34,774 bases of DNA. It comes from a virus. The DNA is taken from IMG/VR virus record IMGVR_UViG_3300010269_000155. One strand, 5' to 3'. The notes under the pieces are model-generated. The model did no database searches, had not been told where the DNA came from, and saw only the letters and a list, made by a program, of their open reading frames with translations. Below, piece by piece: positions 3,203 through 32,060 of the stretch. The stretch's first letter is position 1, and each line of letters opens with the position of its first letter. The position numbers were made by a program, and so were the translations under genes.

Positions 3203-3241
3203 AATATTACACTTAAAAACAATATCTTAAAGGGAGTTCCT

Positions 3242-3706
3242 ATGGCCACAGTAAAGAAGACAAAGCCAAAAAAACAGGTTAAAAATAGTAAGGTTTTTAC
3301 ATGGACTCCAGCACGTAAAGCTGCGGCTTTAGCACTATCAACAGGCTTGAAAACCCAAAGGCAAGTTTGCAAAGAACTTAACATTACTGAAAAAACGATG
3401 TGTGAGTGGAAGAAGTCTCCTGTTTTTTTAGAAGAAGTTGATAGGCTCACTCTAAAAAACGAGCTGGCTACCAGGGCAGGTCTTCTTAGAGAATGCTTGA
3501 AAGGTCTTGACCTGAAGAGAGACCATATTGAAGGCGATAAGAACACTCACCTTCATTATGTGCAGGCCGTTGCAGATCTCCAGGGCCTGATAAAACAGAA
3601 AGTTGACATCGAAGGGAACATGAACCACACAGGTGGGGCTGTAACAATCTACATTCCTGACAACGGCCGGGATAAAAAACAAGATGAAGAGCAAGAACAG
3701 TCCTGA
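3242..3706 (+). CDS. Terminase small subunit-like HTH protein
   Basis: N-terminal HTH pattern (TQRQVCKELNITEKTMCEWKK); directly upstream of and overlapping terL. Confidence 0.7.
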   Translation: MATVKKTKPKKQVKNSKVFTWTPARKAAALALSTGLKTQRQVCKELNITEKTMCEWKKSPVFLEEVDRLTLKNELATRAGLLRECLKGLDLKRDHIEGDKNTHLHYVQAVADLQGLIKQKVDIEGNMNHTGGAVTIYIPDNGRDKKQDEEQEQS

Positions 3707-5180
3707 AGATCCTTCCGAAAAGGATAAGGAAATCCGTCCTCAGCCAGGACCCCAGGAAGCTTTCCTTAGTTCTCCAGCAGATATAATAATTTTTGGAGGT
3801 TCGGCTGGAGGGGGTAAGAGCTGGGTACTTCTTTTAGAGCCTCTAAGAAACATTGATACAAAAGGATTCACTTCAACTATTTTCCGGAGAACCTACCCTC
3901 AGATCATGAATGAAGGCGGTCTCTGGTCCACATCACAAGAGATCTATCCTTATGCCGGGGGATCACCCAGAGAAGCAGACCTTCGTTGGAAGTTCAAAAA
4001 CGGCAATTCTATCAAGTTCTCGCATCTGGAGTATGAGAAATCTAAGCTGGAATATCAGGGTTCTCAGATCTGCTACATTGGTTTTGATGAGCTCACGCAT
4101 TTCAGCGAGACGATGTTCTTCTATCTCCTGAGTAGAAACCGTTCGACGTGCGGCGTAAAGCCCTACATGAGGGCCACATGCAACCCGGATCCCGACAGCT
4201 GGGTTGCAGAGTTCATTGCCTGGTGGATTAACCAGGAAACTGGCTATCCAATCCCTGAAAGGTCTGGAGTGATACGATACTTTGTCAGGCACATGGACCG
4301 CATATACTGGGCTGACTCTGAAGCTGAATTATGGGACCAGGTCAAGAACTTGATGCCAGAAGAAGACTTTCATCCTCAGTCATTCACGTTTATTGCAGCC
4401 AAGCTGGACGACAATCCTGCACTCACAACAAAAGATCCTGGTTATAGGGGCAGGCTCATGGCTCTTCCTCTTGTAGAACGTGAAAGGCTCCTGGGAGGAA
4501 ACTGGAAGATCAGACATACTGCAGGGACAATGTTCCGGATGGAGTGGTTCCATTTCATAGACCGCTCAGAAGTCCCTTTCAGGTCTCTGAATGAGTCTGA
4601 GCCAGACATCTACGTCATCCCAGAAAATAGCCGGAAAATCCGTGGAAAAATGCGTCTGGTTCGCTGGTGGGATACAGCGGCTACAGAGCCAAGTCCTGAG
4701 AACAAAGATCCTGACTGGACTGCAGGGGTCCTCATGGGAGAGCTGGAAGGGAAGTTCTACATCCTCGACCTGGTTCACGTCCAGAAATCTCCTGGTGATG
4801 TTGAGGACCTCATGGCAGCAACAGCAGAGCTTGACGGGAAAAGCGTCGAGATCGGTATGGAGGTAGAGCCGGGGTCCGCGGGCAAGAGGGAAGCTGAAAG
4901 GTTCAGGAGAACAATCTTTTCAGGATACACTTTTCACGCAGAGCGCAGCTCAGGCGACAAAGTCACCAGGGCAAAGCCTTTCAGTTCAGCTGTTCAGCAT
5001 GGCCTTGTCTATGTTGTCCGGGCCCCTTGGAATAATGAGTATCTTAGCGACCTTGTAAACTTTCCTAACCCGAAATACCACGATGACTGCGTAGATGCAT
5101 CCAGCGCATCAAATGATTACCTGACAAGAAAAGGACCGAATAAAACAAGAGGGATTTCTGCTCTCGTCCGGACTCGATAA
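3684..5180 (+). CDS. terL: Terminase large subunit
   Basis: Q motif (PQPGPQ), Walker A GGSAGGGKS, Walker B YIGFDE, TCNP motif, nuclease acidic motifs WDTAA and HDDCVDA. Confidence 0.95.
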   Translation: MKSKNSPEDPSEKDKEIRPQPGPQEAFLSSPADIIIFGGSAGGGKSWVLLLEPLRNIDTKGFTSTIFRRTYPQIMNEGGLWSTSQEIYPYAGGSPREADLRWKFKNGNSIKFSHLEYEKSKLEYQGSQICYIGFDELTHFSETMFFYLLSRNRSTCGVKPYMRATCNPDPDSWVAEFIAWWINQETGYPIPERSGVIRYFVRHMDRIYWADSEAELWDQVKNLMPEEDFHPQSFTFIAAKLDDNPALTTKDPGYRGRLMALPLVERERLLGGNWKIRHTAGTMFRMEWFHFIDRSEVPFRSLNESEPDIYVIPENSRKIRGKMRLVRWWDTAATEPSPENKDPDWTAGVLMGELEGKFYILDLVHVQKSPGDVEDLMAATAELDGKSVEIGMEVEPGSAGKREAERFRRTIFSGYTFHAERSSGDKVTRAKPFSSAVQHGLVYVVRAPWNNEYLSDLVNFPNPKYHDDCVDASSASNDYLTRKGPNKTRGISALVRTR

Positions 5181-5619: not shown

Positions 5620-6861
5620 ATGTCTGAACTCAATGCAGCTGCCCCTACTCCTAAAAGGAAATTATCCTTAGCAGCAGCAGTCGAACCTCTTAACAGGTCG
5701 AACACTTCTTCAACATCCGGGCCCTATGTAAATTTTGACCAGAACAACAGATTTACTTTTTACCAGCAGCTATCCACCTGCAACCCCCACGTTTCTACCG
5801 GTCTAAACAAACTGGGGCTTTCCTTGGTCAAAGGCATGTCCTTCGATGGAAAAAAGCAGGCAGTGAAAGAGTTCAAAGAATATTCTAAAAAATCAAACTT
5901 CACAAACCAGATACAGACAATTTCCCGCGTCCTCTGCAGGGACGGGACTTATCTTGCAAAACCTGTGTACGGGGCAAACGGTGGTAGTTTCCGCCTTGTG
6001 CCTTTCCTGATGCCTTATACAACAATCCTGCCTGAGGGGTATGCACCAGGTTCACGACCCACAAAAATAATGCAGCCTGGAAAAGATCTGGAAAAAACCA
6101 GGTTCTATGTATACGAGAAACAGCAAGCTCAGGAAGTCCTCGAATTCAACAAGGTTGTATATGGTAACTATAACGAATATGATTCAGTGCAGCTGGATGT
6201 CAAAAAGAGGAAAACATACGGGCTATACGGGTCGTCTCTTCTTGTTCCCTTGATTCCAAGCATTCAAAACCTCCTGGACATCGATCAGGGGTTCATTTCC
6301 TTTGTCAAAAAATATGGTAACGGGCGGTATATTTTCAATTTCAGGTTAGTCGAAGAGCTTGTGAAGCAGGATATAATCACTCCTGAGGAAGGACAGGAAA
6401 TCATCAATGATTGGTGTGAGAAACACAAGGACCTGTCCGAAAATGAGGACATTGTAGGGGCAGGCATTGATGTCTACACACCCGATCCAAAAGGCTCTCT
6501 TGATATTACAAAATTCAAGGAGAGTCTTGAGACTGAAATTCAGATAGGACTCTTCCAATCGCCTTTGAACATGGGTAAGGCTTCCGGCACGACTTATGCA
6601 AGTGCGTACATGGTCGAAGAAGACAGGATGTTAGTCCTCGAAGGGATTCAGGAAATTGTAAAAGGTCTTGCTCAGACAGCTGTAGATTTCAGGCAGGCTG
6701 CTGCAGGAAAACAGCCAGGTTCAGTGACAATTGAATTTGAGGAATTGTCGCTTGAAAAATTAACAGTGACTGAGATGCAGGAAATGTACAACACAGGCGT
6801 AATTTCAAAAGAGATGTTTTTGAAACGTACAGGATTCCCGGAAGAGGAAATGCAGGAGTGA
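5620..6861 (+). CDS. Putative portal protein
   Basis: 413 aa, located between terL and the MuF gene; helical character; no catalytic motifs. Confidence 0.7.
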   Translation: MSELNAAAPTPKRKLSLAAAVEPLNRSNTSSTSGPYVNFDQNNRFTFYQQLSTCNPHVSTGLNKLGLSLVKGMSFDGKKQAVKEFKEYSKKSNFTNQIQTISRVLCRDGTYLAKPVYGANGGSFRLVPFLMPYTTILPEGYAPGSRPTKIMQPGKDLEKTRFYVYEKQQAQEVLEFNKVVYGNYNEYDSVQLDVKKRKTYGLYGSSLLVPLIPSIQNLLDIDQGFISFVKKYGNGRYIFNFRLVEELVKQDIITPEEGQEIINDWCEKHKDLSENEDIVGAGIDVYTPDPKGSLDITKFKESLETEIQIGLFQSPLNMGKASGTTYASAYMVEEDRMLVLEGIQEIVKGLAQTAVDFRQAAAGKQPGSVTIEFEELSLEKLTVTEMQEMYNTGVISKEMFLKRTGFPEEEMQE

Positions 6862-6911
6862 GTGCATGACACTGTAAAATGCAATACAATTCAAAAACGG
6901 AGATAAAAACG

Positions 6912-7883
6912 ATGTTAAAACAACTGTTTATGATATTATTTTTAGTTATGCTCTTAGCAACACCGTCAGTCGCAAGTGAAAAAGGTGCTATAATCCAGAT
7001 GACCACAACATTAGAAAACAGCGATACTCAGCTACATTTTAATTATGCTGAAAACCTGGGAGATGGGCGTGGTGTTACATTTGGGTGTATCGGGTTCTGC
7101 ACTGGGACTTATGATGGGAACATCCTTGTCAAACATTATACTGAACTGAATCCAAATAACAATCTTGCAAAGTATATCCCGGCTCTGAATAAGATTGATG
7201 CTGGTCCTCACAATGCAGCAGGTGGAGACGGAAATCCAAGCTTAGAGGGATTATCTGGATTTATAAAAGACGTTCAGTCGTGCAATGACCCACTTTTCAA
7301 GACAGCTCAGATTGACAAACTGGATGAGCTCTACTATAATCCTGCAATGGAAATTGCAGATTCTATAGGCGCAAAAAATGCACTTACTAAAGCTTTCATC
7401 TATGATATGTGCGTCAGGCATGGAGTTGACGGGGCAGAAAGCATCATCAGGAAGGCAGGTACTACTCCGAAGCAGGGAGCTGATGAGAACACATATCTCG
7501 GAAAGTTGATTTCACTCAGGGACGCAAAACTAAAGCAGGAAGGCCTGGGAGATGTAAACAGAGATCAGGGATACAAAAACGTCCTCAACAGTGGAAATGT
7601 TAATCTTCAGACTCCCTTTACTTTCGTTGCTTATGGAGAATCTTTCACTATTGATGGCAACTTAGATCTCGGAGAATACCAGGAAGAAATCCCAGTTGAA
7701 GAACCACCGGAAGTAATCGAACCGGAAGAACCTGAAGAACCTGAAATTACACCAGAGGAACCTGTAATTACTCCAGAAGAGCCTGAAAACACGGAAGAAA
7801 AGGATAACAAATGGCATCATAAAAAATATCATAAACACGGCAGGCATCACAAAGAGTGTCACAGACACAGTAGAAGATGTTGA
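6912..7883 (+). CDS. csn: Secreted GH46 chitosanase homologue with Glu/Pro linker and His/Lys-rich tail
   Basis: LENS...YAENLGDGRGVTFGCIGFCTGT matches the GH46 signature (cf. Streptomyces AENSS...EDIGDGRGYTGGIIGFCSGTG); later similarity in YYNPA, YDMCVRHG, TPKQGADE, GNVNL. Signal peptide starts at ATG 6912 (alternative start 6879). Confidence 0.9.
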   Translation: MLKQLFMILFLVMLLATPSVASEKGAIIQMTTTLENSDTQLHFNYAENLGDGRGVTFGCIGFCTGTYDGNILVKHYTELNPNNNLAKYIPALNKIDAGPHNAAGGDGNPSLEGLSGFIKDVQSCNDPLFKTAQIDKLDELYYNPAMEIADSIGAKNALTKAFIYDMCVRHGVDGAESIIRKAGTTPKQGADENTYLGKLISLRDAKLKQEGLGDVNRDQGYKNVLNSGNVNLQTPFTFVAYGESFTIDGNLDLGEYQEEIPVEEPPEVIEPEEPEEPEITPEEPVITPEEPENTEEKDNKWHHKKYHKHGRHHKECHRHSRRC

Positions 7884-7923: not shown

Positions 7924-9558
7924 ATGCTTCTGAACACTCCTGAGATTCGTCGCATCGAATCCAGGTTCCTTTCTCTTTTTGAAAGAACTTTCCTTAAAGG
8001 AATCAAGGGAAAGCCTGCACCCTCTTACCTGAAATCAGTCAAGACTCAGTTCAAGTCAAAGACCTTCCAGATCCAGGCGGACAAAATCATTGATGATATC
8101 TACCTGCAGTCAATCGAACATACAGACAAACAAACAAAAAAGGCGCAGGCAAGTGTACTAAAAAAAGGCAGTAGGCACTTATCAGCTGCTTCAAAACCTC
8201 TTCCGATTACCGAGGAAGCCGTCAGGCAGGCTGTAGGATTATCGAAGGAAGTAACCGAATCAATCATCAAGTTCCTGAAGGATGATGGGATCTACCTTGA
8301 GCATCCAAACACGCTTGAGAAAAGAGTACGGGAACTATGGGGTGGACAGAAGTATAGAGCTGTAAGATTTGCCAGGACGTTCACAGCTGATGTGGCTACA
8401 AATACAGAGCTCTGGAGATATCAGGATGCAGGGATTGACGACCTGCAGTTCTATGCGAAGATAGATGACAAGACTTCTCCGCAGTGTCGCACTATGCATG
8501 GGACGGTTTTTAAGACTGATTCTCCTGAGGCTAGACGGTACCGTTGTCCTTTGCACCAAAATTGCCGCAGTAGCCTCCTTCCTGTGCCTATCACTCAGAA
8601 AGTAGATCCTAAGATGCGGTTCGAGAACAGGGACTTCACTAGGCAGATGGATCAAGAATTCAATATCCTTGATGACCGAACAGACAAGGACCTCATCAAG
8701 AAAACCTTTTCCGATATCGATACCTTCAATGAGAAGTACAGGATTGATCAGTTCATTCTTGACGAGGATGTAGAAGCCAGGCTGCAGAAGTTGAACATCC
8801 AGATCCTGAGTGAGATCCCAAAGGAGAAAACTAACTTAAAATATACGCCAGTAAAGACAGTTAAAAAGGCTGAGGAGTGGCTATTGGAAAACACTTCAGT
8901 GAAGTATGCCGATTTCAAAGGAGTGCATATAGACATTGTTAATGAGATGATTGAAAGTTTCGTATACCATCTGAATCTAGAACCTAAACTTGCTAACAAA
9001 ATGAAATTTTATGGAACAGGACAGGCACAATTCGAGCTGTGGTATCAGGATGAACTCAAGAAGGAAATCGAGTGGCTAAAAAAACTCCACCCAGAAGATG
9101 AAAAACTCATATTAGAAAGGGCAAAGAGGAGAATTAAAAAGCCAAAGATGGATGGCAAAACATACGCTCATTCGTGGAATCATCCCAAGTTTGGAGGCAT
9201 TGGAGTAAATAAAAAGTTCGGTAGCAACCCATTAACGTTTTCTGAATGTGCCGAAAAAGATGAGAGTGTAGGATGGCATCCTACAGGCTGCAAAACTATT
9301 AAATCGATATTCGATCACGAGTTTGGCCATGAGTTAGATAACATTTATAACATATCCAATTCAGATATAGTGTCAAATCTCTATACCAAAAAAAATATTG
9401 AAGAAATTCATAACAACCTTTCTAGGTATGCTCTGACTTCCAAACAAGAGCTTGTGGCAGAGGCATGGGCAGAATATCTAAATAATCCAAGTCCCAGAAA
9501 TATTGCAAAGGAAGTTGGAGAGTTTATAACGTCAGAAGTCAACAAGGGTAAATCATGA
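7924..9558 (+). CDS. MuF (SPP1 gp7-like) minor head protein with C-terminal HExxH metallopeptidase-like extension
   Basis: MuF motifs (DDKTSPQCRTMHG, PLHQNCRS) in the N-terminal half; HEFGH, LSRYA and ELVAEAW in the C-terminal domain. Confidence 0.85.
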   Translation: MLLNTPEIRRIESRFLSLFERTFLKGIKGKPAPSYLKSVKTQFKSKTFQIQADKIIDDIYLQSIEHTDKQTKKAQASVLKKGSRHLSAASKPLPITEEAVRQAVGLSKEVTESIIKFLKDDGIYLEHPNTLEKRVRELWGGQKYRAVRFARTFTADVATNTELWRYQDAGIDDLQFYAKIDDKTSPQCRTMHGTVFKTDSPEARRYRCPLHQNCRSSLLPVPITQKVDPKMRFENRDFTRQMDQEFNILDDRTDKDLIKKTFSDIDTFNEKYRIDQFILDEDVEARLQKLNIQILSEIPKEKTNLKYTPVKTVKKAEEWLLENTSVKYADFKGVHIDIVNEMIESFVYHLNLEPKLANKMKFYGTGQAQFELWYQDELKKEIEWLKKLHPEDEKLILERAKRRIKKPKMDGKTYAHSWNHPKFGGIGVNKKFGSNPLTFSECAEKDESVGWHPTGCKTIKSIFDHEFGHELDNIYNISNSDIVSNLYTKKNIEEIHNNLSRYALTSKQELVAEAWAEYLNNPSPRNIAKEVGEFITSEVNKGKS

Positions 9559-9728
9559 CAATCGGAGCGGCACCAGTTTGTTTGGAATGTAAACATTTAA
9601 TTGAAGATCTGGGTCCTATGCGATGCAAGGCATTTCCTGATGGCATTCCTGATGAGATCTGGAGAGGCAACAATGACCATAAGAAACCTTATCCTGGAGA
9701 TCATGGGATACAGTTCGAACACGTATGA
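9555..9728 (+). CDS. Cys/His mini-protein paralog 1 (57 aa), candidate cognate immunity protein
   Basis: [57 protein letters not shown]; ATGA overlap with the MuF stop; missed by the ORF track. Confidence 0.85.
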   Translation: MTIGAAPVCLECKHLIEDLGPMRCKAFPDGIPDEIWRGNNDHKKPYPGDHGIQFEHV

Positions 9729-9898
9729 CTATTGGACCCAGACCTGTATGTTTAGATTGCAAACATTTTATACACTAGAAGGGCTCGTTCAGGTGTGCCG
9801 CTTTCCCTGATGGTATCCCGGAAGAAATAGAGATGGGTGAGAACGACCACAAGAAGCCTTATCCTGGGGATCATGGAATTCAATTCGAGCACGTTTAA
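9725..9898 (+). CDS. Paralog 2 (57 codons) with in-frame TAG at 9776-9778 (pyrrolysine read-through or pseudogene)
   Basis: [56 protein letters not shown]; same length as paralogs 1 and 4. Confidence 0.75.
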
Positions 9899-9958
9899 AG
9901 GATGACTCAAGAAGCCATTAAGTCTTTAGCTTAGTGGCAGTTCGCCGAAGGAAGAAAC

Positions 9959-10171
9959 ATGACATGTATTGACGACCGGGAATTAGACAAAGTAACTTAC
10001 AGTTCGATCTGTCTTCCGTGCAAACATTTTCAGAGAGAAGCTTATTCTGAAACCGGTAAAAAGACATGTGATGCTTTTCCTGATGGTATTCCTGATGAGA
10101 TCTGGAGAGGCAACAATGACCATAAGAAACCGTACCCCGGAGATCATTGGATACAGTTCGAGCACTTATGA
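9959..10171 (+). CDS. Paralog 3 (70 aa, long form)
   Basis: CLPCKH...CDAFPDGIP...[18 protein letters not shown]. Confidence 0.85.
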   Translation: MTCIDDRELDKVTYSSICLPCKHFQREAYSETGKKTCDAFPDGIPDEIWRGNNDHKKPYPGDHWIQFEHL

Positions 10172-10341
10172 CTATTGGACCCAGACCTATCTGTTTTGAA
10201 TGCAAACATTTTATAGATGAAGAGGGACCTATGAGATGTGAAGCCTTTCCGGATGGCATCCCTGAAGATATCGTATTAGGAGATAACGATCATAAAAAGC
10301 CTTATCCTAGAGATAATGGAATCCAATTTGAGCATTTATGA
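10168..10341 (+). CDS. Paralog 4 (57 aa)
   Basis: ATGA overlap at 10168; MTIGPRPICFECKH...CEAFPDGIP...NDHKKPYP...IQFEHL. Confidence 0.85.
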   Translation: MTIGPRPICFECKHFIDEEGPMRCEAFPDGIPEDIVLGDNDHKKPYPRDNGIQFEHL

Positions 10342-10444
10342 CTACTTTCCTCTTTTTAATGAGGAGTATCTATTTTCGCATTTTATGAAACCTTATCTCA
10401 AAAGACCACGGTTTTAACTATATACAGATGGAGTAGTAAGCACG

Positions 10445-10657
10445 GTGGGAGAAAAATTCGTTTTGGATGACTCATCTGATGCAGAAATCATCTATAGCCC
10501 AATCTGCTCATATTGCAAACACTTCTATTGGAAAGGCAGAGGGATTCACGAATGTAATGCTTTTCCTGACGGCATCCCAGATGATATATGGAGAGGCGAC
10601 AACGATCACAAGAAGCCTTACCCTGGAGATCACATGATTCAATTTGAACACGTTTAA
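10445..10657 (+). CDS. Paralog 5 (70 aa, long form)
   Basis: GTG start after GGAG; CSYCKH...CNAFPDGIP...[18 protein letters not shown]. Confidence 0.85.
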   Translation: MGEKFVLDDSSDAEIIYSPICSYCKHFYWKGRGIHECNAFPDGIPDDIWRGDNDHKKPYPGDHMIQFEHV

Positions 10658-11006: not shown

Positions 11007-11846
11007 TTAATACGTTATCTTATTGTTTCTTGTTATAGCACTTGGTGCATCAATTCCCGGCTTCGCACATTTCTCAATTATGTTGTCCTCTATGATTACA
11101 TTTGACATTTTTGCCTCTATTGCTCGAACTCCTGGATAAGGTAGGTCCTTGATAGAATTCCCATAAGCTCGGATATCCTTGAGTTCTCCCTGCAACTGCA
11201 GACCAGTATGGCCACCTCCGGAGGTGCTGCATTTGTTGTTAAGAAACTCCCCTTTTGTCACGTTATAGAAGCGGCAGCTGGAATTTGTTCGGTTGATGAA
11301 CGTGGAATTTCTAACAGAGATGCCGTCCACGTAATAAGCGTATATCCCATCATGCCCACATTTGTTGACAGTTATTCGGTCTATGTCAACACCATAACAG
11401 TTGTTAAGCAGGATGGCATCATTGCAACCGTTCTGGAAAACACAATCCTCGAGAGTCAAACCGTTACAGCCTATCAGGGTTGCCATGTTATAAAGCGAAG
11501 TTCCGAGCCTGACGTCAGGATAATAATCACTCTGACTACCATCGACAGTGAAGTTCTTCAGGACCACATTGTTTGCGGAGTTTCCAGCGATCATCAGCAT
11601 AGCCTTTTCTTCTTTGATAGGACATCCACGGTAACCCCAGGCAGGCAGCCCTTTTGCGAGCTTTATTGTTGCACCATTTCCATCGAAGATGGTATGGCTA
11701 CGGAACAGGAGAGAATCTTCTATTGTGTAGATGACATCCGGATCCAGGATTATCGTCCCACCATGAGCAAGAGCTTGATTGATTGCTTCTGACGTGGTCC
11801 CACGATATGTCCTGAGCTTTCCATCTGCGCCGATAGCTTCAATCGT
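11007..11846 (-). CDS. Right-handed beta-helix (pectate-lyase-like, disaggregatase-related) protein; true 5' end is an ACG start at 11846 or read-through of TAG 11850
   Basis: Frame is open for 83 codons upstream of ATG 11600 and encodes a typical beta-helix cap (AINQALAHGGTIILDPDVIYTI...DGNGATIKL); GHDG and RTNS motifs. Confidence 0.7.
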   Translation of the reverse strand, partial: TIEAIGADGKLRTYRGTTSEAINQALAHGGTIILDPDVIYTIEDSLLFRSHTIFDGNGATIKLAKGLPAWGYRGCPIKEEKAMLMIAGNSANNVVLKNFTVDGSQSDYYPDVRLGTSLYNMATLIGCNGLTLEDCVFQNGCNDAILLNNCYGVDIDRITVNKCGHDGIYAYYVDGISVRNSTFINRTNSSCRFYNVTKGEFLNNKCSTSGGGHTGLQLQGELKDIRAYGNSIKDLPYPGVRAIEAKMSNVIIEDNIIEKCAKPGIDAPSAITRNNKITY

Positions 11847-11849
11847 GTT

Positions 11850-12431
11850 CTATCGCTTCAGTTTGACGTATATTTCAATACCTTCTGCCCGCTCCTTGAT
11901 CTTCTCGGATATCTCTTCGGCTTCTGACTCAGAGACACATGGAATTACCAGGTAGGCTGCATCGTCCGGCTGAGTAGGGATCTCGGGTGTTTCAGGCTCC
12001 GGTTCGGTTGGCTTTTCAGGCTCCACAGGCTGTTCTGGTTCAGGCTCAGGATCGACATAAGAATAAGTGTATGCCACGTTCATCATTCGGGATCTGGGTG
12101 TCCCAGAGGTTTTCAGATACCATCTGATGATAACAGGCTTTCCAACTCCGGCAACAAAATCTACTGCCTTGAGCTGCTCTTCATATTTTGTATTCTTTGT
12201 TGTGAATGTTGCCAGTTGTTCCTGCTTCCCATCGACTTCTATAGTAACTATGCATGTGCCTTCAATGCCTGAAGCCGAAACCTGAAATAACATGGAAAGC
12301 TTTTCAATCTTGATCCTCTTACCTTCCTGTGCTGGAATCGTTTCTTTTTTCTGCATTTCCCTTTCTGTCGAAAAATCGATTTCGGTGTAGATGGTCGAAT
12401 ATACTTTTTTTGTATCCTCAATGGTAGGCAT
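11850..12431 (-). CDS. Hypothetical protein: beta-rich domain, Pro/Glu linker, short C-terminal module
   Basis: PEPEPEQPVEPEKPTEPEPE linker; ATG 2 nt after the upstream stop with AGGAG RBS. Confidence 0.75.
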   Translation of the reverse strand: MPTIEDTKKVYSTIYTEIDFSTEREMQKKETIPAQEGKRIKIEKLSMLFQVSASGIEGTCIVTIEVDGKQEQLATFTTKNTKYEEQLKAVDFVAGVGKPVIIRWYLKTSGTPRSRMMNVAYTYSYVDPEPEPEQPVEPEKPTEPEPETPEIPTQPDDAAYLVIPCVSESEAEEISEKIKERAEGIEIYVKLKR

Positions 12432-12433
12432 GG

Positions 12434-13714
12434 TTATTTTCTCCTAAAAATCTGTTTTTCTGGTAATGAATTTCGAATAGCAGTAACCTGTTCAGAACTA
12501 CAAGAAATAAACAAGAAAGCTGGTCTTTCAGCTGGCTCTTCTTCTGGACCCTCAACTGTGCTGGATACATTTATTGCACCGTAGTAATCCCCAGATTCGT
12601 TATTCAGGAAAGTGTTCTCAGAAGCTTCAACGGTATAGTAATCCTTTCCAAGAACATTGGCAATTGCATATCCTGAAACTGCCCCTGGATAGAAGGCCTT
12701 CCTTGTATTGACAATTGAGTTCTTCCTGACTGTTGCTTTGCAGCCCTTCACCCCACCTTTCCCGATGTAGTTGTCAAAACTGACCGCATTTCCAGAGCAC
12801 CCATCAAAAATATTGTTCTCGATCAGAACATCCGTGAAACCATCAAAAACCATCCCACCTACTCCAGGGATCGTGTTCGCTGCTGGCATCATACCGCAGT
12901 TTCTGAATGTATTGTGATGGATGTACACTCCAGCTGCACCGCCCAGAGGCACGCTTGCTATACCCCAGACACCAGGTCCGTAAGTGTCCTGGACCAGGCA
13001 ATTCTTCATCTCGATATGCATGCATTTTGTCCCGTCCAGGATATTCTCAAGCTGCACAGGCGGAGCCCAGGCATTGTTCGTGAAGTCGTGGAACTGGCAG
13101 CTGTCAATCAGGACATTAGAAGAGGACCTTACCCGGACAGCATTGTTAGCCCGGATTTCAAAAGAACAGTTTTCAATCGTGGCTCCAGAACATTTGAAAA
13201 GGTGAATGAAGTCATGTCCCCCTTCTGCACCGGAGCAGTGGTCAAAGACAAGGTTTGAACCGCCGTTCAGCCTCCACCCATCCCCCTCATTCCGGTTCAC
13301 TTCCACATTCCGGAATACTGAGTTTGTGATATTTGAAAAGCCGAACAGGTTTCCATACCCTACTCCATGATCGTTCTGAGTGTTTCCCTGGTTTGCATAG
13401 TTCCCATCATAGACAAGGCCGTCAACTTCCAGGCCTGTAATCGAAGAGCCTTTCTGTCCTATGATAGGGACCTGTGCTCCAAAGTTAGGAGCGTTGTCCA
13501 TGAGCTTCCATGTCACTCCTTCCTCGAAAGTCATTTTTGTATTATCGTTCAAAAACAGCCGGGAGTTGAGGAGGTATTGTCCGGTATCGCCTTTCAAAAA
13601 ATGAACATGTGAGTACTGTAGCAGATCGCCGTTCACCGTTCCCGTTTTGTCAAGTGCCTTCTGTATGCCAGGGGAACTTGTTCCCTTAACCGGGGTTAGT
13701 ATGCAGGTTTCCAC
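12434..13714 (-). CDS. Right-handed beta-helix, disaggregatase-related polysaccharide depolymerase-like protein
   Basis: Repeating beta-helix turns; GHD, TYGPGVW, VYIHHNTF and IENNIFDG motifs as I recall them from Methanosarcina disaggregatase-related proteins; GTG start with GGTGG RBS. Confidence 0.75.
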   Translation of the reverse strand: METCILTPVKGTSSPGIQKALDKTGTVNGDLLQYSHVHFLKGDTGQYLLNSRLFLNDNTKMTFEEGVTWKLMDNAPNFGAQVPIIGQKGSSITGLEVDGLVYDGNYANQGNTQNDHGVGYGNLFGFSNITNSVFRNVEVNRNEGDGWRLNGGSNLVFDHCSGAEGGHDFIHLFKCSGATIENCSFEIRANNAVRVRSSSNVLIDSCQFHDFTNNAWAPPVQLENILDGTKCMHIEMKNCLVQDTYGPGVWGIASVPLGGAAGVYIHHNTFRNCGMMPAANTIPGVGGMVFDGFTDVLIENNIFDGCSGNAVSFDNYIGKGGVKGCKATVRKNSIVNTRKAFYPGAVSGYAIANVLGKDYYTVEASENTFLNNESGDYYGAINVSSTVEGPEEEPAERPAFLFISCSSEQVTAIRNSLPEKQIFRRK

Positions 13715-18551: not shown

Positions 18552-19481
18552 ATGACAGGTGGAAACGCACTTCTCACACATCTCAAGGATCTGTTTGATC
18601 CGACTATTATTTCGGTACTGACTGCTCAGTCGGTCGGTAGACAGCTCATGCCAATCAATCCAGAACTCTCAGGTCAGGGGCTCGGTGTCCTCACCGTCGA
18701 AACGCTGCGTTATGTAGCTCGTAGCGGCGCAATCACAAACTACGACATCCAGAAAGACATCGAGGACACTATTGACATCGAGAGTCTTCAGGTTCGCGTC
18801 CCTGTCCAGCAAGACATGGTGCGTATCAAGTACCGTGATTGGCTGGCATATCAGAAGAAGAAAATCCCGATTGAGGCAGACATCAGTACCGATATGACTG
18901 CAAAAATCGCAAGGGAGCAGGACAAAATCATTGCTGATGGTTGGAAACCGCAGGGTACAAATTACCTAATCAAAGGGATGTACCAGGTGGCTGGAAACTC
19001 TGTTATCGGGGAAGATTCTGGAAGTTATGGAAACGTTAAATCTGCAGTCGTCGCTGCAATTTCAAAACTCAAGCTGAGTGGCGTCTATTCCCGTGGATAC
19101 AACCTTTCCCTTGCTCCTTTCAACTATGCTGAGCTCATGGACTCCGAGAATGACACAGGAAAAGAAGAAACCGCTGCAATCCTGAAAATCCTTAACGCCG
19201 CAGCACCAAACGGATCACAGCCAGGACAGATCTATGAAGTCCCTGATCTCGCAGCCGGAACCGCAATGGTAAGCCCCATAGCTTCTCAGGAGAACCTCAG
19301 ATTCTTCGACATCATTGAACTTCAGGTCCCGGAAAATGATCTCTGGTATGATGGCGGCAGACCGAAGGGCGACATCATGATGGAGCAGGTCGGTGCTCTG
19401 GTTCCACGGTTCAAACACCTTGATCCGGACACGTTGACCGACCCATGTGTCTGTAAGATTACCAGCCTTGGAACAAGCTAA
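18552..19481 (+). CDS. Major capsid protein (HK97 fold)
   Basis: 309 aa; AREQDKIIADG and AVVAAISKLK...GYNLSL segments typical of HK97/encapsulin-like shells; position in the module. Confidence 0.8.
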   Translation: MTGGNALLTHLKDLFDPTIISVLTAQSVGRQLMPINPELSGQGLGVLTVETLRYVARSGAITNYDIQKDIEDTIDIESLQVRVPVQQDMVRIKYRDWLAYQKKKIPIEADISTDMTAKIAREQDKIIADGWKPQGTNYLIKGMYQVAGNSVIGEDSGSYGNVKSAVVAAISKLKLSGVYSRGYNLSLAPFNYAELMDSENDTGKEETAAILKILNAAAPNGSQPGQIYEVPDLAAGTAMVSPIASQENLRFFDIIELQVPENDLWYDGGRPKGDIMMEQVGALVPRFKHLDPDTLTDPCVCKITSLGTS

Positions 19482-23090: not shown

Positions 23091-26000
23091 ATGAGTGCTG
23101 GTGAACTGGTTGTTTCCATTATCGGAGATATGAAAGAACTGTCCCGTGTCTTCTCTCAAGTTCAGACTGAAGTTGGGAAAGTGGGAAAACAGTTCGAGAC
23201 GATGGGGAAATCACTCAGTTCAGCCGGAACCAGTATGGCAGCCGGGATAACTGTTCCGATCCTTGCTATTGCCGGTACTGGTGCTCTTCTGGTTAATTGG
23301 GCTAACGATGTTGGAAAATCTCAGGGACAGGTAAAGGCTTCCCTCGGCCTTACAGCAGAAGAAGCAAACAAGCTTACAGACGCAGCAATGAACGTCTGGA
23401 AAAACGGCTTCGGAGACTCAATAGACGCGGTTAATCAGGTTATTGTTTCAGTCCGGCAAAACATGGGTGACCTCGCCGGTCAAGAACTTGAATCAGTCGC
23501 TTCTGGAGCAATCACAATATCTGAACTTTTCGGGGATGATGTCAACGAAGTAACAGCAGCTGCAGGCGTCCTAATGCGGAACTTCGGGATAGATGGACAG
23601 CACGCCCTGGACATCATCACAACAGGCTATCAGCAAGGCGGGGATTTTTCAAAAGAACTCCTGGATACCCTCCGGGAATATGCTCCGCAGTTTCAGGCCA
23701 TGGGTGTTTCTGCAGACGAGTTTCTAGCTATTCTGATTTCGGGTGCAGAGGCGGGAGCCTGGAACCTTGATAAAGTAGCTGACGCAGTCAAAGAGTTCAA
23801 TATTCGTGCCCAGGACGGTTCAGATCTTACAATAAGCGGGTTCGCAGCTATCGGTTTAAGCGCGGACGAGATGTCCCAGAAAATAGCAGCCGGTGGGGAC
23901 TCTGCAAAAGAGGCTTTTATTGCTACTGTTGCCGGACTTATGGCTATCGAGGACCCTGTAAAACGTAATATAGCCGGGGTTGCCCTGTTCGGAACTCAAT
24001 GGGAGGACGTAAAAGCTCAGGTAATTGATGCCACAGCCTCCGGGATACAAAACGTCCAGGACGTTGCAGGCGCGACGGATAAGGCTGCTAAAGACGTTGC
24101 CGATTCGAATCCAATGCTCGCGCTTACGGAAGCCGCACGGGATCTTCAGGCCGACCTGCTTCCAATTATACAAGGGCAGATAATTCCACTTATCACCCAG
24201 GATCTGCTTCCGATCCTGACAGGAACACTGATTCCTTTCATCGAGAATGTCGCACTCCCGGCTATATCTGCATTTGTAGAAGGATTTGCAGCGCTGCCTG
24301 AACCAGTCCAATTGGGAGCAATTGCGTTTACAGCATTCATTACCGCACTCGGTCCGATCCTCATGCTTGTGGGCGCGGTAGTATCCTCAATCGGAACTCT
24401 CGCTACTGCCGTGGGAACTGGCGGAGTGCTGGCCACAGCTTTTGCCTCTGCCAAACTCGCTATTACTGGATTCCTGACAACTCTCTCAGGCTTGGCTCTC
24501 CCTATTGCAGCTATCATTGCTGTGGTTGCTGCTCTTGCGCTTGCCTGGAAAAACAATTGGGGAGATATTCAGGGCAAAGCAAAAGCTGTATGGGACTGGC
24601 TACAGTCCGAAATGAATAAGCTTGTAAACAGGCTTGAATACTATTATCACGCCCTTGTTATGGCGATTAGTGCAGCCGACCTTGAGGATAAATGGGATCG
24701 CATTAAAAACCGGCTCGAATACTACTATCATGCTCTTGTGATGGGTGCGAGTGGTCTGTACAACGACCTGAAAAAGTATTGGGATGAACTGTCTACCGCA
24801 CTCGAACCCGCAAAGGAAAGTCTCAGTTCAGCATGGGACAGTATAAAAACGATCTGGGAAACGTTCAAAACCTCGTTCCTTGACAGCATGAGTACCCTGT
24901 ATGAGAACGTGAAGAAAGCTCTCGAACCCCTATGGGACACCCTTGATGAACTGTGGCAGCAACTCAAAGAAGACGTAATTCCTGTCGTCCTTGACTTCCT
25001 TGGCTCTTTTAGCGGCTCGGCCATGGACGACGCACAGGGCGATATCGATTCACTCACGGGTATCATTAATTTCCTTAGCGAGAAACTCAGTGAGTTCCTC
25101 GATTGGGTAGCACGTCACCCCGAAATCACCGAATTTGTTGCCACAGTTGCGGCTATGGCTGTAGCTATACCGGTTGCTCTCGGTCTTTTAGCTGCCGGTA
25201 TTGTCCTGTTTGTCGCAAAAGTCGTAAGCCTGTTTATTGAGCTTGTCAAAGCCGCATATGACCTGTATACTGATTGGAAGGCTCATTTTGAAAATTTGAA
25301 GACTACAGTAACCCAAGCTATTGATTATATCATTGCAAAGGTTCGGGGTTGGTATACTGAAAACGTAAACAAATTCAACCTGATTAAATCTGCCGCGTTG
25401 GATTTACTGAATAACTGGCGTACGCATTGGGACAATATCAAGACCACTCTAACGCAGGCCGTTTCTGATATCGTCACAAGATTACAGGGCTGGTATAATG
25501 ACACCCAGGCCAGATTTACCCAAGTAAAAACAGCCGCTCTAGCCCTTCTCATTGACTGGCGTACTCACTGGGAGAATTTCAAATCAACATTAACACAAGC
25601 AGCAGCTTATATCATGACCAAACTGCAGGGCTGGTACACTGATACTCAAAATAAATTCAATCTGGTCAAAGCAGCTGCCCTTGATATTCTCAATAACTGG
25701 CGTACACACTGGGAGAATTTCAAGACCGCTCTCAATCTAGCTGTAGCTAACATTATTGCCAAGTTGCAGTCCTGGTACACGGACGTACAGAACAGGTTTA
25801 ATCAGGTCAAGGCGGCGGCTCTTGCTTTTTATAACAACTGGAAAGCAAGGTGGGATTCGATATGGAAGACCCTCAGCGATGCTAAGGACTACATTATCAA
25901 TACCGCTCAGATGCTTTACAACGATCTGCTAAACCGGTATAACCGGATTAAAGCGGAGCTTTCTAACCTGCTTACTGAATGGAAGGCAAGATGGAACGAA

Positions 26001-26744
26001 ATATATACGTCCGTAAAAACGAAGGCTACCGAGATCGTTAATGAGGTTTACGGGATTGTAACCAAACTTAAAAACAAGGCAACCGAGTTTTATAACGCAG
26101 GAAAGAACCTTGTCCAGAACTTGATAGACGGGATCAACGACAAAATTTCTTCTCTCAGGAAAAAAATAGACGAACTAACCTCAATGATAGCCGACTATTT
26201 GCCTATGAATAGTCCGTCATTGAAAGGTGCTCTTTCAAAACTCCCAAAATGGGATGACGTTGTTTCAAGTCCAGTCGCTAAATCGCTTTCTTCTACAGTT
26301 TCAGCAGCTAAAAGCGCAGGGTCCTCCATAGTAAGCTCTATCGCGAGCGGAATATCCTCAGCTGCAAAAACTGCATACAACGCTGCCTCTTCTGCCCTTA
26401 AAAAAGTCAAGAGCCTGCTCCCTCACTCTCCTGCGGAAGAGGGACCTTTCTCAGAAATCCCTAACTGGGACTCTATTTTCGTTGACCCCATGAAGGAATC
26501 AATCGCAAGGACAGCCGAGCTTGCAAAACCTCTCAGTCAGGCTCTTAGTAGTGTTCGTTCTCCTATCGATTCCCTTTCTGGTGGACTCGGTCAGGTTGCA
26601 GCTGTCACAAACAACAGCTTTGCAGGAGACACGATCACAATCGGACCGAACACGCTGGCAAACAGTGTAGATGTCAGGATGCTGATTGAAGAACTGAACA
26701 AATACACGGCAAACAAGAGAAGGGCAAGGGGGCTGTACTCATGA
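23091..26744 (+). CDS. Tail tape measure protein
   Basis: 1217 aa, Ala/Gly-rich; minor-tail motif LDTLREYAPQF...GAWNLDKVADAVKEF; Trp-spaced repeats. Confidence 0.95.
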   Translation: MSAGELVVSIIGDMKELSRVFSQVQTEVGKVGKQFETMGKSLSSAGTSMAAGITVPILAIAGTGALLVNWANDVGKSQGQVKASLGLTAEEANKLTDAAMNVWKNGFGDSIDAVNQVIVSVRQNMGDLAGQELESVASGAITISELFGDDVNEVTAAAGVLMRNFGIDGQHALDIITTGYQQGGDFSKELLDTLREYAPQFQAMGVSADEFLAILISGAEAGAWNLDKVADAVKEFNIRAQDGSDLTISGFAAIGLSADEMSQKIAAGGDSAKEAFIATVAGLMAIEDPVKRNIAGVALFGTQWEDVKAQVIDATASGIQNVQDVAGATDKAAKDVADSNPMLALTEAARDLQADLLPIIQGQIIPLITQDLLPILTGTLIPFIENVALPAISAFVEGFAALPEPVQLGAIAFTAFITALGPILMLVGAVVSSIGTLATAVGTGGVLATAFASAKLAITGFLTTLSGLALPIAAIIAVVAALALAWKNNWGDIQGKAKAVWDWLQSEMNKLVNRLEYYYHALVMAISAADLEDKWDRIKNRLEYYYHALVMGASGLYNDLKKYWDELSTALEPAKESLSSAWDSIKTIWETFKTSFLDSMSTLYENVKKALEPLWDTLDELWQQLKEDVIPVVLDFLGSFSGSAMDDAQGDIDSLTGIINFLSEKLSEFLDWVARHPEITEFVATVAAMAVAIPVALGLLAAGIVLFVAKVVSLFIELVKAAYDLYTDWKAHFENLKTTVTQAIDYIIAKVRGWYTENVNKFNLIKSAALDLLNNWRTHWDNIKTTLTQAVSDIVTRLQGWYNDTQARFTQVKTAALALLIDWRTHWENFKSTLTQAAAYIMTKLQGWYTDTQNKFNLVKAAALDILNNWRTHWENFKTALNLAVANIIAKLQSWYTDVQNRFNQVKAAALAFYNNWKARWDSIWKTLSDAKDYIINTAQMLYNDLLNRYNRIKAELSNLLTEWKARWNEIYTSVKTKATEIVNEVYGIVTKLKNKATEFYNAGKNLVQNLIDGINDKISSLRKKIDELTSMIADYLPMNSPSLKGALSKLPKWDDVVSSPVAKSLSSTVSAAKSAGSSIVSSIASGISSAAKTAYNAASSALKKVKSLLPHSPAEEGPFSEIPNWDSIFVDPMKESIARTAELAKPLSQALSSVRSPIDSLSGGLGQVAAVTNNSFAGDTITIGPNTLANSVDVRMLIEELNKYTANKRRARGLYS

Positions 26745-31000: not shown

Positions 31001-32060
31001 GACTGCCTCATGGCCTTCCTGGATCCAGACTTTGCTGGCGCCAGAAGAAACTGGTGTATATGCGAAAACTTTGACAGACACTCATAAAGAGCCTAAACAG
31101 TTTGTTTTCAACCCGAAGACAACCCGGCTGGAAGCAATCAAGGAAATAGCTGGCTATGTTGGCTGCATGATCCATATAAAGCTCATTACCCGGGAGATTT
31201 CCGGGCTTACAGTTACCAGGCCAGAGTTCTACCTCGTGCAACCTGAGAACATAGACCTGAGCGCAAACGGGTTTGATCTTCCCGCTCCCATCACCCTGAT
31301 TTATCCTGATCCCTCTCTTGTAGATGAACCAAAGATAGTTTCGGAACCTGAAGAAAAGTACAACAAAGTGACGGTTCACGGGATCCTGAGCGAGACCGGG
31401 GAAACTGTTGTTGCCTCTGCTTTTTCTGCGGCTGTCTACTCAGGTGAACAGAAGGCAAGAGAGTACATGATAGAGGACAATTCAATTTCTGAGAAGGGTA
31501 GCACAGCCGAAAGAGAGGCAGTCAAGTGGTTGTTGTATTTCCTGACACCCCGGGCAAAGGTGTCTATGCAGTTCGTTGACCGGTTCGACCTGGAACTATA
31601 TCAGAGGATCCGGTTTGGCTCTGGATTCTCCAGGGGTCTACAAGCTCTTACAAGCTCCGTTCAGGTCCCCGTGGTCTATGCCTGTGACCCCAGGGATGCA
31701 GCGAACAGTACACACTCAGTTGATGTCTCAAGAGTTCCGCGTCCATCATGGTTAAGGATTTCAGAAATGAAATATCACAGTGAACACGCTCTTGAAACGG
31801 TTGATGTTACTGCAATTACAGATTTCATCTATTCCTCGGTTGATCCGGTTGTCCCTGATCCTTACTCCCAGTACCTCAGTCCCGGGTACATGAAACCAAT
31901 CATCGATGACCTGGTCCAGACTACACAGACGATAGTGGACGATACCATCGAAAAGCAGTTGACTCCCCAGAGCGGTACTGTCCTGTCAGTGAACGAAGAA
32001 ACGAAAACGGCAGTCGTGCAATTGGCGGACGGAAAAATTGTGACGGTGTCACTGGCATGA
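28005..32060 (+). CDS. Large tail-tip protein: four DUF2341-like repeats, two lectin/ConA-like domains, C-terminal hub-like region
   Basis: Repeats of W-K-(Y/F)...PGM...D.RF...(I/V)..YYGNG.A.SES; lectin-like ends VDWVRVRKY and IDWIRVRQ. Confidence 0.75.
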   Translation: MQRYLAWKYKKELLISNPSATEGLQVFFTLPYYPGMRYDFRDIRFTTVSGTAIPYFIESVINFTSAFVWLKLPANTDLILLYYGNGSVTSASDASTVFELWDDFLGTSINTSVWNVGGSGGSVSGSILTLQHSSLSGYIESKTLYVPNSLVEMRIAHQSGQRGPFGFRSTSTQKAAAWQGAAGSLLTDHRFAHNGSSGDWDNDGVNRSGSVYNIYGVAHVAAGPRYYVNYSYRGEITTTVPGAVNLPVQIYSYYGEGYIKVDWVRVRKYSASMPAISVGRKHINQPKTFTLPEPITASTAVEMVPEVSLKGFVNASTQVSMVPVAMFRQPLFYQPAVTGPYQQWKFRGDVRIETLDRPVQISIPLSPGMAVDGRDLRFSDTRGNILRYNLESAENSMFSFWVDVPEDATKIHYYYGNGVAVSESDDSITGEPSLLTEYYLPEIPGPYQKWKFLGDIEITDIPAGETVQRVNIDLLPGMNLDGRDLRFSSTEGQEIPYRIESLESGVFTCLVEWPAGTSKIHFHYGNGTAVSESDGSITLDPIVTTMSMPSSIAYPRWKYRGDIRISAVPAVDTQILVDIPRLPGMTLDGRDLRFSDNAGTAVKYFLESSDSDSFSVWIRWPAGSSKIHFYYGNGAAVSESSAADVFNFWEDFDSLDPGVWTTLAGSPVISDSKLYLSSTTVNSLLRSVSMFGTGTLLEMRMYHAQNNQMICGYWSSANQRACWLGASGTSNYDYMHTHNGSTSTSVNDNVYRYGTTFYKYGVAYNSGSVVFYVDDALRGTITTNVPSGDLPISLYSEVNAGELVIDWIRVRQQTDAVAAVEKHYPQSVSGFQIEEVQPITAFVSRHHPRWQVPLKIDTPVATAVLERHYPRWQTAIRYYDYIAPQAYVFMQPDVVKWKERKELRDYSVGAIEVSKSINDTYLQLSTEFVDLVVPPEDSTIKHVANDSQGNPHLLFNGKVVANSSVMRYNGNSVSMQAADLSRNLVVQKVPWNYQVVDGETASWPSWIQTLLAPEETGVYAKTLTDTHKEPKQFVFNPKTTRLEAIKEIAGYVGCMIHIKLITREISGLTVTRPEFYLVQPENIDLSANGFDLPAPITLIYPDPSLVDEPKIVSEPEEKYNKVTVHGILSETGETVVASAFSAAVYSGEQKAREYMIEDNSISEKGSTAEREAVKWLLYFLTPRAKVSMQFVDRFDLELYQRIRFGSGFSRGLQALTSSVQVPVVYACDPRDAANSTHSVDVSRVPRPSWLRISEMKYHSEHALETVDVTAITDFIYSSVDPVVPDPYSQYLSPGYMKPIIDDLVQTTQTIVDDTIEKQLTPQSGTVLSVNEETKTAVVQLADGKIVTVSLA

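Follow-up and report, generated by a model that had tools for sequence, protein, structure and literature searches.

The viral record IMGVR_UViG_3300010269_000155 (IMG/VR) comprises 34,774 nt of DNA, and this whole stretch is referred to as the window in the following. It carries, on the plus strand, a gene for a MuF/SPP1-gp7 head protein fused to a C-terminal zincin metallopeptidase domain (7924–9558, 544 aa; PF04233, TIGR01641, phrog_324), which is directly followed by five paralogous genes, p1 to p5, encoding small proteins of a family with three conserved cysteines and a histidine (Cys3-His). A reading made from the sequence alone, here called the original prediction, had taken these genes for a protease toxin and a set of immunity proteins.

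The MuF-zincin gene and the five small genes

In the N-terminal part of the large protein, Pfam PF04233 (Phage_Mu_F) matched aa 130–218 (E 1.7e-9; 38.8 bits, cut-off 29.6), and the protein matched TIGR01641 (phageSPP1_gp7) with an E value of 7.7e-33 (113 bits, cut-off 39.65). A hidden Markov model (HMM) built for this analysis located the MuF core domain at 8233–8604 (+), and the conserved MuF backbone extends from 7924 to approximately 8840, corresponding to the N-terminal ~305 aa. The C-terminal ~240 aa (8827–9534, +) form a swappable zinc-protease domain, supported by profile, fold model and GC shift. A match to phrog_324, annotated as 'head morphogenesis', spans aa 295–537 (E 8.7e-22). The GC content amounts to 45.5% (51.5% at third codon positions) over 7924–8820 and to 37.1% (36.7%) over 8821–9558, compared to 44.6% for the whole window. 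The AT-rich turn from approximately 8820 that the original prediction had described is real, and the drop coincides with the junction of the MuF and zincin domains.

The zincin domain contains the motif HEFGH at aa 465–469 (9316–9330), Tyr502 (9427–9429) and Glu509 (9448–9450). All 34 homologs have H465, E466, H469 and E509, with S500 and Y502 being almost invariant, and these residues, together with PF04233 and TIGR01641, bear out the fusion of MuF with a C-terminal HEFGH domain proposed earlier. A profile of the domain matched the catalytic region of anthrax lethal factor with an E value of 6.4e-9, over only ~75 residues, and PPEP-1/Zmp1 with an E value of ~2e-3; we take this group to belong to peptidase family M34. 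The Pfam model ATLF scored 14 bits with the 544-aa protein, below its cut-off of 27.4 bits. The AlphaFold2 model of the domain has a predicted local distance difference test (pLDDT) value of 94, and its best fold matches, again lethal factor and PPEP, were weak (Foldseek E 0.015, probability 0.98, TM ~0.4). Judged by its sequence, the C-terminal domain is an intact zinc-protease domain that appears to be related to lethal factor and PPEP, with predicted activity.

The five small genes are all encoded on the plus strand. Three of them, p1 (9555–9728), p2 (9725–9898) and p4 (10168–10341), have 57 codons each and belong to a zincin-linked clade of the family (clade A), while p3 (9959–10171) and p5 (10445–10657, GTG start) encode 70 aa proteins of the type found after JAB-like domains (clade B). 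The start of p1 overlaps the stop of the MuF gene in an ATGA (9555–9558), as predicted, and the same overlap is found between p1 and p2 (9725–9728) and between p3 and p4 (10168–10171). Thirty columns are invariant among the five paralogs, including CxxCKH, C-x-AFPDGIP and NDHKKPYP. The proteins p1, p3, p4 and p5 match phrog_33375, a family of unassigned function (E 7.8e-8 to 2.2e-9), and had no match at E ≤ 0.1 in Pfam and NCBIfam, including the known immunity families Imm-SuFu and SUKH. No blastn match to 7924–10657 was found in the phage collection. A scan of the array for sigma-70 promoters and terminators gave results at chance level, the sigma-70 model being inapplicable to archaeal promoters.

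Synonymous sites are saturated among the array copies and dN ranges from 0.14 to 0.36, which indicates that the copies are old and under purifying selection and are neither a chance nor a recent repeat. The original prediction was right about five paralogs of 57–70 aa with invariant motifs, all of which are kept, but it missed an in-frame TAG (9776–9778) in p2. This codon, as well as the frameshifted or truncated chromosomal homologs at L111, L113, L114 and L115, would fit an array that is decaying duplication debris without current function. Such an origin is very improbable, as every invariant residue is kept in all five copies and the substitution pattern described above speaks against decay. 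Even p2 retains all family motifs downstream of the TAG, with a dN/dS of 0.08 in comparison to p4. Moreover, Methanosarcina can decode TAG as pyrrolysine, and TAG is a rare stop codon in the window, where it ends 3 of 41 crude calls of open reading frames (ORFs). A second, independent in-frame TAG at a different position is present in a chromosomal homolog in a Methanosarcinaceae genome (L101, 4000–4215, minus strand). The gene p2 may be a pseudogene or be read through with pyrrolysine, and the TAGs of p2 and L101 may accordingly be pyrrolysine codons or recent nonsense mutations.

Gene neighbourhoods and exchange of the protease domain

A profile search with the small family yielded 2,566 protein clusters and 202 viral contigs, and the nearest ESM Atlas clusters are unnamed and mostly viral. 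Approximately 80 of 88 loci have a large ORF of the same orientation that runs up to the small gene. Zincin and JAB-like domains were scored in 98 loci with HMMs built in this analysis. A zincin domain is present within 200 nt of the small gene in 42 of these loci and a JAB-like domain in 33, and three more have a zincin nearby, so that a protease domain directly precedes the small gene in 78 of the 98 loci. The genes with whose enzyme-domain end it is associated encode MuF or portal proteins. The survey proposed with the original prediction was run in this way, and the small genes are found mostly directly after protease domains and not away from them. A small ORF immediately behind the MuF gene, arranged as in the window, was also found in L095, L097 and L098. 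In Brevibacillus phage Jenst, the small gene is located in the DNA-metabolism region, and a zincin-bearing 'virion structural protein' is encoded 310 nt upstream.

The JAB-like domain carries a JAB/RadC-like motif (HNHP-x5/6-S-x-x-D), with E27, H66, N67, H68, P69, S75 and D78 invariant in 25 sequences, yet it has no Pfam match and only chance matches in the PDB. In approximately eight further loci the small gene is preceded by a gene ending in an ADP-ribosyltransferase domain (ART). The family is thus not specific to metallopeptidases: it also follows ARTs and occurs as an N-terminal domain in fusions to ART, S-adenosylmethionine (SAM) lyase, topoisomerase IB, ArsR and zincin domains.

The type of the small protein follows the enzyme domain in front of it. 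In the tree of the small proteins, a branch with support values of 97/99 separates 36 rows from 50. The former side (clade A) holds 26 zincin-linked rows together with p1, p2 and p4, and the latter (clade B) nearly all JAB-linked rows together with p3 and p5; the small genes linked to ARTs form a sub-branch. The zincin label changes 10 times on this tree, compared to 25 times in shuffles. The MuF N-terminal regions of the window, P0242, P0244 and L011 are 72–73% identical, and in the tree of these regions L011, which has a JAB-like domain and a clade B partner, nests (95/98) among the zincin-bearing MuF proteins of the window, P0242 and P0244. The partners of L095 and L097 resemble clade A copies. 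The nesting of a JAB-type MuF with its clade B partner in the zincin-bearing clade shows that domain and partner were exchanged together at least twice, and the variable C-terminal domain postulated for MuF is a swappable cassette, a zincin in the window, P0242 and P0244 and a JAB-like domain in L011.

In 151 Methanosarcinaceae genomes, small genes adjoining MuF were always found with open frames of 468–541 aa, while at least 10 MuF frames of ~295 aa were present in genomes in which the small family was not matched. It is supported by these sequence comparisons that the small gene is tied to the cargo domain rather than to MuF itself. A generic role as partner of MuF or of the head module had been considered in view of the varied upstream C-termini and the many effector fusions. 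It was rejected because the family was not matched in the genomes with the ~295-aa MuF frames, the clades track the cargo, the fusions follow a protease and other zincin subclades use other small ORFs.

Several members of the array are closest to partners from other viruses. The identity to p1 within the array is 67–75%, and the nearest array neighbour of p4 on the tree is p2 (72%). In comparison, p4 is 89% identical to the lone partner in L095, the closest MuF-zincin relative, p3 shares 81% identity with the partner of L016, a JAB-type locus, and 74% with that of L011, and p5 shares 86% identity with the partner of L012, likewise of the JAB type, and groups with L012/L013 at 99/80. Each of these three is nearer to the single partner of another virus than to its array neighbours. 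The protein p1 is 98% identical to a metagenomic singleton (P0001), and p2 is 73–75% identical to the partners of L097 and L095. A JAB domain was not found in the window with the HMM scan, even at lenient thresholds. Since p3 and p5 are of the JAB type, copies such as p4 are nearer to partners from other viruses and the window has no JAB domain, the array looks as if it had accreted from different viruses and holds putative partners for a cargo domain that is absent from the window. The extra copies had been called orphans before, and for p3 and p5 this agrees with their membership in the JAB-accompanying type. The designation of p1 as the cognate copy is in line with its position at the MuF stop, but p4 resembles the L095 partner more closely (89%) than p1 does (72%). 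Five copies were found only in the window, and 85 of 90 loci have a single copy. A two-gene version is present in a Methanosarcinaceae provirus (L116), where a MuF-zincin gene is followed by a copy without the N-terminal extension of clade B and by a clade-B-like copy, both types being judged by eye from the sequence and not by tree placement.

Starting from the zincin, 68 distinct related zincin loci were collected from viral contigs, one of which lies at a contig end and was left unscored. The small family is adjacent in 11 of the 68 loci, and a divergent homolog on the opposite strand lies just downstream in seven more. In all 50 loci without the small family, a different small co-oriented ORF is located at the zincin stop; these ORFs belong to several unrelated families, the largest of which is a ~50-aa acidic helical protein (27 loci). 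Mapped on the zincin tree, the labels of these families are strongly clustered, with 15 changes compared to 48 in shuffles. Such a many-to-many, clade-tracking pattern would be what toxin/immunity networks show, although linkage alone would also be expected to produce much of it. The divergent homolog of the small protein (CxxCxHF...C[KR]AFDxIP...GQKG) was observed 20–40 nt past the zincin ORF in convergent orientation in L178, L184, L189, L191, L192, L194 and L197. Other variants, encoded at L112, L117 and L118 of one genome (G109), lack the third invariant cysteine (...NARDAFPDGIP); of these three, one is an orphan, one stands behind a MuF fragment and one behind a MuF-JAB gene whose match is split into two pieces.

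Copies of the small family are also found on host chromosomes. The profile gave 35 matches in 23 of the 151 Methanosarcinaceae genomes, approximately 11 of which are located next to a long MuF gene, while at least 10 of the 35 have no protease within 4–6 kb. On the chromosome of Methanosarcina hadiensis, one such orphan (L002, 5953–6153, plus strand) lies in a type I restriction-modification locus between hsdR and a DUF3644/restriction endonuclease-like gene with hsdS. Two copies are located between genes for an AMP-ligase and NikR/ArsR (L005), another two between a solute symporter and an ABC-transporter binding protein (L001), and further orphans were found at L099, L103, L104, L106, L108 and L110. 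Near-identical single-copy orphans (...EAPECxxCKHFIESIGMPACKAFPYGIP...) occur in four Methanosarcinaceae genomes (L103, L104, L106 and L107) and may stem from a shared provirus or represent a conserved cellular gene.

Candidate roles of the small proteins

The interpretation we prefer, with a probability of about 0.5, is that the small proteins are immunity-like neutralising partners of MuF-borne enzyme domains and that the array is a mixed 'polyimmunity' set. It is favoured because of the cassette behaviour of the domain, the dependence of the small gene on the cargo, the tracking of enzyme classes, the mixed array and the orphans. According to this interpretation, MuF would carry a zinc-protease cargo domain that can be exchanged and probably enters the virion, and the five small genes would encode class-specific binding partners of such domains, the standalone proteins most likely being neutralising. 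Each small protein would fold around a metal of its own, bound by Cys9, Cys12, Cys24 and either His14 or His42, and its variable N-terminal half would bind the cognate enzyme domain and keep it inactive in the cell that produces it. In a lysogen, the array could blunt the zincin or JAB cargo brought in when related viruses superinfect the cell, and orphans on host chromosomes might do the same protective job for the cell. The toxin/immunity assignment of the original prediction is thereby retained in part: the swappable domain, a partner tied to the cargo, class tracking and orphan-like copies speak for it, but the partner is not specific for metallopeptidases and p1 is a candidate cognate by its position.

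Several observations weigh against this interpretation. A single homologous family provides the partners of three enzyme folds that are unrelated to each other, and the most conserved half of the small protein does not change with the fold. The tracking of classes is imperfect, as clade B includes four zincin loci and clade A one JAB locus, and most of the related viral zincins (50 of 68 loci) are followed by unrelated small ORF families. Some of the chromosomal 'orphans' (L100, L102 and L105) lie beside decayed, frameshifted MuF/JAB or zincin fragments and are provirus relics. Adjacent genes would also be co-inherited by linkage, so that covariation between domain and partner is no proof of contact. 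Furthermore, the zincin is a predicted toxin, and for the zincins of phage polyvalent proteins a function in processing, and not as toxins, was proposed (Iyer et al. 2017, PMC5512222); a processing role might apply to this domain as well.

The domain architecture of the longer homologs adds to these objections. Approximately 85 of 120 carry the small domain N-terminal to another protein, and such fusions were found with ART plus SAM lyase, ART, topoisomerase IB, an ArsR helix-turn-helix domain, Zeta toxin, MuF and zincin; N-terminal fusions to other effectors are unusual for a plain antidote. They would be explained if the small domain served as a handle or 'header' module that docks on the MuF- or portal-borne protease and tethers the fused effectors to the packaging vertex, where the protease may later free the cargo; standalone copies would then be co-packaged regulators. 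In line with this, the fusion genes start right after a protease-ending gene in all three loci examined, namely a portal-JAB gene followed by small-ART-SAM lyase (L091), a zincin followed by small-ART (L092) and a zincin followed by small-topoisomerase IB (L093). Direct fusions of the small domain to a zincin exist (P0164, P0185, P0198 and P0202), ArdC-N is a published precedent for an N-terminal header in polyvalent proteins (PMC5512222), and a conserved half common to the partners of three folds would fit a docking module. However, docking leaves unexplained the intact orphans in cellular contexts without a nearby protease as well as the five cargo-less copies of the window, two of which match a domain that the virus lacks, and most zincin-bearing MuF genes use unrelated small ORFs. 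We regard this alternative as less probable than neutralisation. Neutralisation and docking have one required step in common, the predicted physical binding of the small protein to the cargo domain.

The small protein might also act on its own. All 121 family members compared have C9, C12 and C24, and H14 and H42 are almost invariant. The AlphaFold2 model has a pLDDT of 84 and almost no secondary structure, which would be typical of a metal-organised mini-domain. A profile of the family gave only chance matches among PDB sequences, and the only fold matches, all of them weak, are small [4Fe-4S] subunits or high-potential iron-sulfur proteins (HiPIPs), namely 4pkf_B, 1eyt and 2y8n_B (Foldseek E 7–9; VIA Z 2.0 for 2y8n_B). 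These features are consistent with an autonomous metal-binding protein, a zinc knuckle or a HiPIP-like [4Fe-4S] protein acting for example as a regulator or moron, which travels with the protease genes by linkage at a recombination hot spot. The ArsR fusions, the chromosomal copies beside the metal regulators NikR and ArsR and the copy in the DNA-metabolism region of phage Jenst point in the same direction. We nevertheless consider it improbable. The fold matches are at chance level, and even phage Jenst has its zincin upstream. An unconnected passenger would not account for the consistent ATGA-type coupling to the stop of the enzyme domain, for clades that track enzyme classes across bacteria and archaea, or for the restriction of MuF-adjacent copies to the long MuF frames.

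A wider form of the neutralising role, rather doubtful at present, is that the Cys3-His family constitutes a retargetable neutraliser of virion-delivered zincin, JAB-like and ADP-ribosyltransferase enzymes, of which viruses stack copies against rivals and Methanosarcina hosts have captured copies as a defence.

Comparison with known systems and genomic setting

Fusions of MuF with metallopeptidases are already known, and Euryarchaeota have been listed among the lineages with the MuF system (Zhang et al. 2012, PMC3482391). A metallopeptidase domain was found in 20% of the predicted MuF toxins (Jamet et al. 2017, PMC5576092). Small proteins encoded next to the MuF toxins Apk2 and Bxa neutralise them, and polyimmunity has been proposed for MuF clusters (PMC11699363), which gives the neutralising role a precedent. 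Experimentally tested MuF-borne 'toxins' are limited to two bacterial cases, neither of them a protease, and no tested metallopeptidase MuF toxin or partner was found in the MuF literature searched. Like the MuF polymorphic toxins (PMC3482391, PMC5576092), the MuF protein of the window has a variable C-terminal enzyme, is encoded in the head module of a temperate virus and has a small ORF coupled to the stop of its gene, with domain and ORF being exchanged as a cassette. It differs from them in its archaeal host, in the use of one Cys3-His partner family for three enzyme classes, in the mixed array of five genes and in the fusion of the partner domain to other effectors.

Similarities exist also to the zincin-like MPTase hub domain of polyvalent proteins (PMC5512222), which shares the HExxH motif, a distant kinship to lethal factor and fusions to MuF/portal proteins and ART. 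Packaging and delivery together with the DNA have been predicted for that domain, and its network includes the same ART, SAM lyase and Zeta toxin domains that are fused to the small family here. Processing or effector roles were proposed for it and no downstream partner was described; under cysteine or zinc-ribbon wording, no mention of the Cys3-His domain was found in that paper. Polyimmunity loci of the SUKH and SuFu type (PMC3482391) resemble the array in that diverged small paralogs stand in tandem beside a toxin, including types for toxins absent from the locus, that one superfamily serves unrelated toxin folds and that orphans occur in toxin-less genomes. In contrast to SUKH and SuFu, the small proteins of the window have no Pfam match, and their setting is an archaeal virus instead of a bacterial secretion system. 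The immunity protein listed for lethal-factor-type toxins is Imm-SuFu and not the small Cys3-His family (PMC3482391). With lethal factor and PPEP themselves, the zincin of the window shares the HEFGH helix, the downstream Tyr and Glu (S-x-Y...E-x-x-A-E) and the profile match to the catalytic region. Only this catalytic core is common, and a virion head protein stands against a secreted toxin.

New features, as far as found, appear to be a Cys3-His family that provides partners for zincin, JAB-like and ART cargo and tracks these classes, the repertoire of its fusions, the mixed five-gene array in an archaeal virus and the host-borne orphans. MuF-borne 'toxins' might serve in the killing of competitors, in host takeover or in self-processing, and the locus offers an archaeal example together with a large, unnamed and mostly viral partner family with cargo-tracking subtypes. 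The array is a natural set of matched and mismatched partners, the specificity of which is testable with a small protein matrix. From this locus it also seems possible that hosts and resident proviruses protect themselves by neutralising the viral enzymes injected into the cell; if true, anti-effector immunity would be a currency that archaeal viruses have in common with their hosts. The Cys3-His site and the fusions to ART, SAM lyase, topoisomerase IB and ArsR point to a protein- or metal-binding module that can be reused and merits structural study.

According to its gene content and nearest relatives, which are Methanosarcinales genomes and viral contigs, the window represents a temperate tailed archaeal virus or provirus of the Methanosarcina type. 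The archaeal-virus setting named in the original prediction is supported by these relatives, by disaggregatase-related domains and by the integrase, HK97-like capsid and tape-measure genes. The large terminase is encoded at 3684–5180 (phrog_979, E 3.5e-162). The portal-like gene (5620–6861) was assigned by a weak match to phrog_3753 and by its position, which is conserved with the portal gene of the relatives. An HK97/linocin-like capsid protein is encoded at 18552–19481, the tape-measure protein at 23091–26744 and a tyrosine integrase on the minus strand at 33527–34774. Near the left end of the window, a protein with an N6 DNA methylase domain is encoded (378–1109, +).

Between the portal-like gene and MuF lies a gene for a GH46 chitosanase-family protein (6879–7883, +; E 4.3e-46). 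The protein has a hydrophobic N-terminal stretch (putative signal peptide), a Pro/Glu-rich linker and a His/Lys/Cys-rich tail. Such a gene is unusual in a head module, and its target may be an envelope of the methanochondroitin type. Three beta-helix proteins are encoded at 11007–13714 (−) and 32057–33526 (+), two of them with disaggregatase-related domains (PF08480). One beta-helix block is convergent with the head genes and directly follows the five-gene array, and the same convergent block is kept after the single small gene in the related viruses L095 and L097. In L097, a close relative, an abortive-infection-type gene (AbiJ_NTD4/Abi_C; 3205–4086, −) is located directly after the single small gene on the opposite strand.

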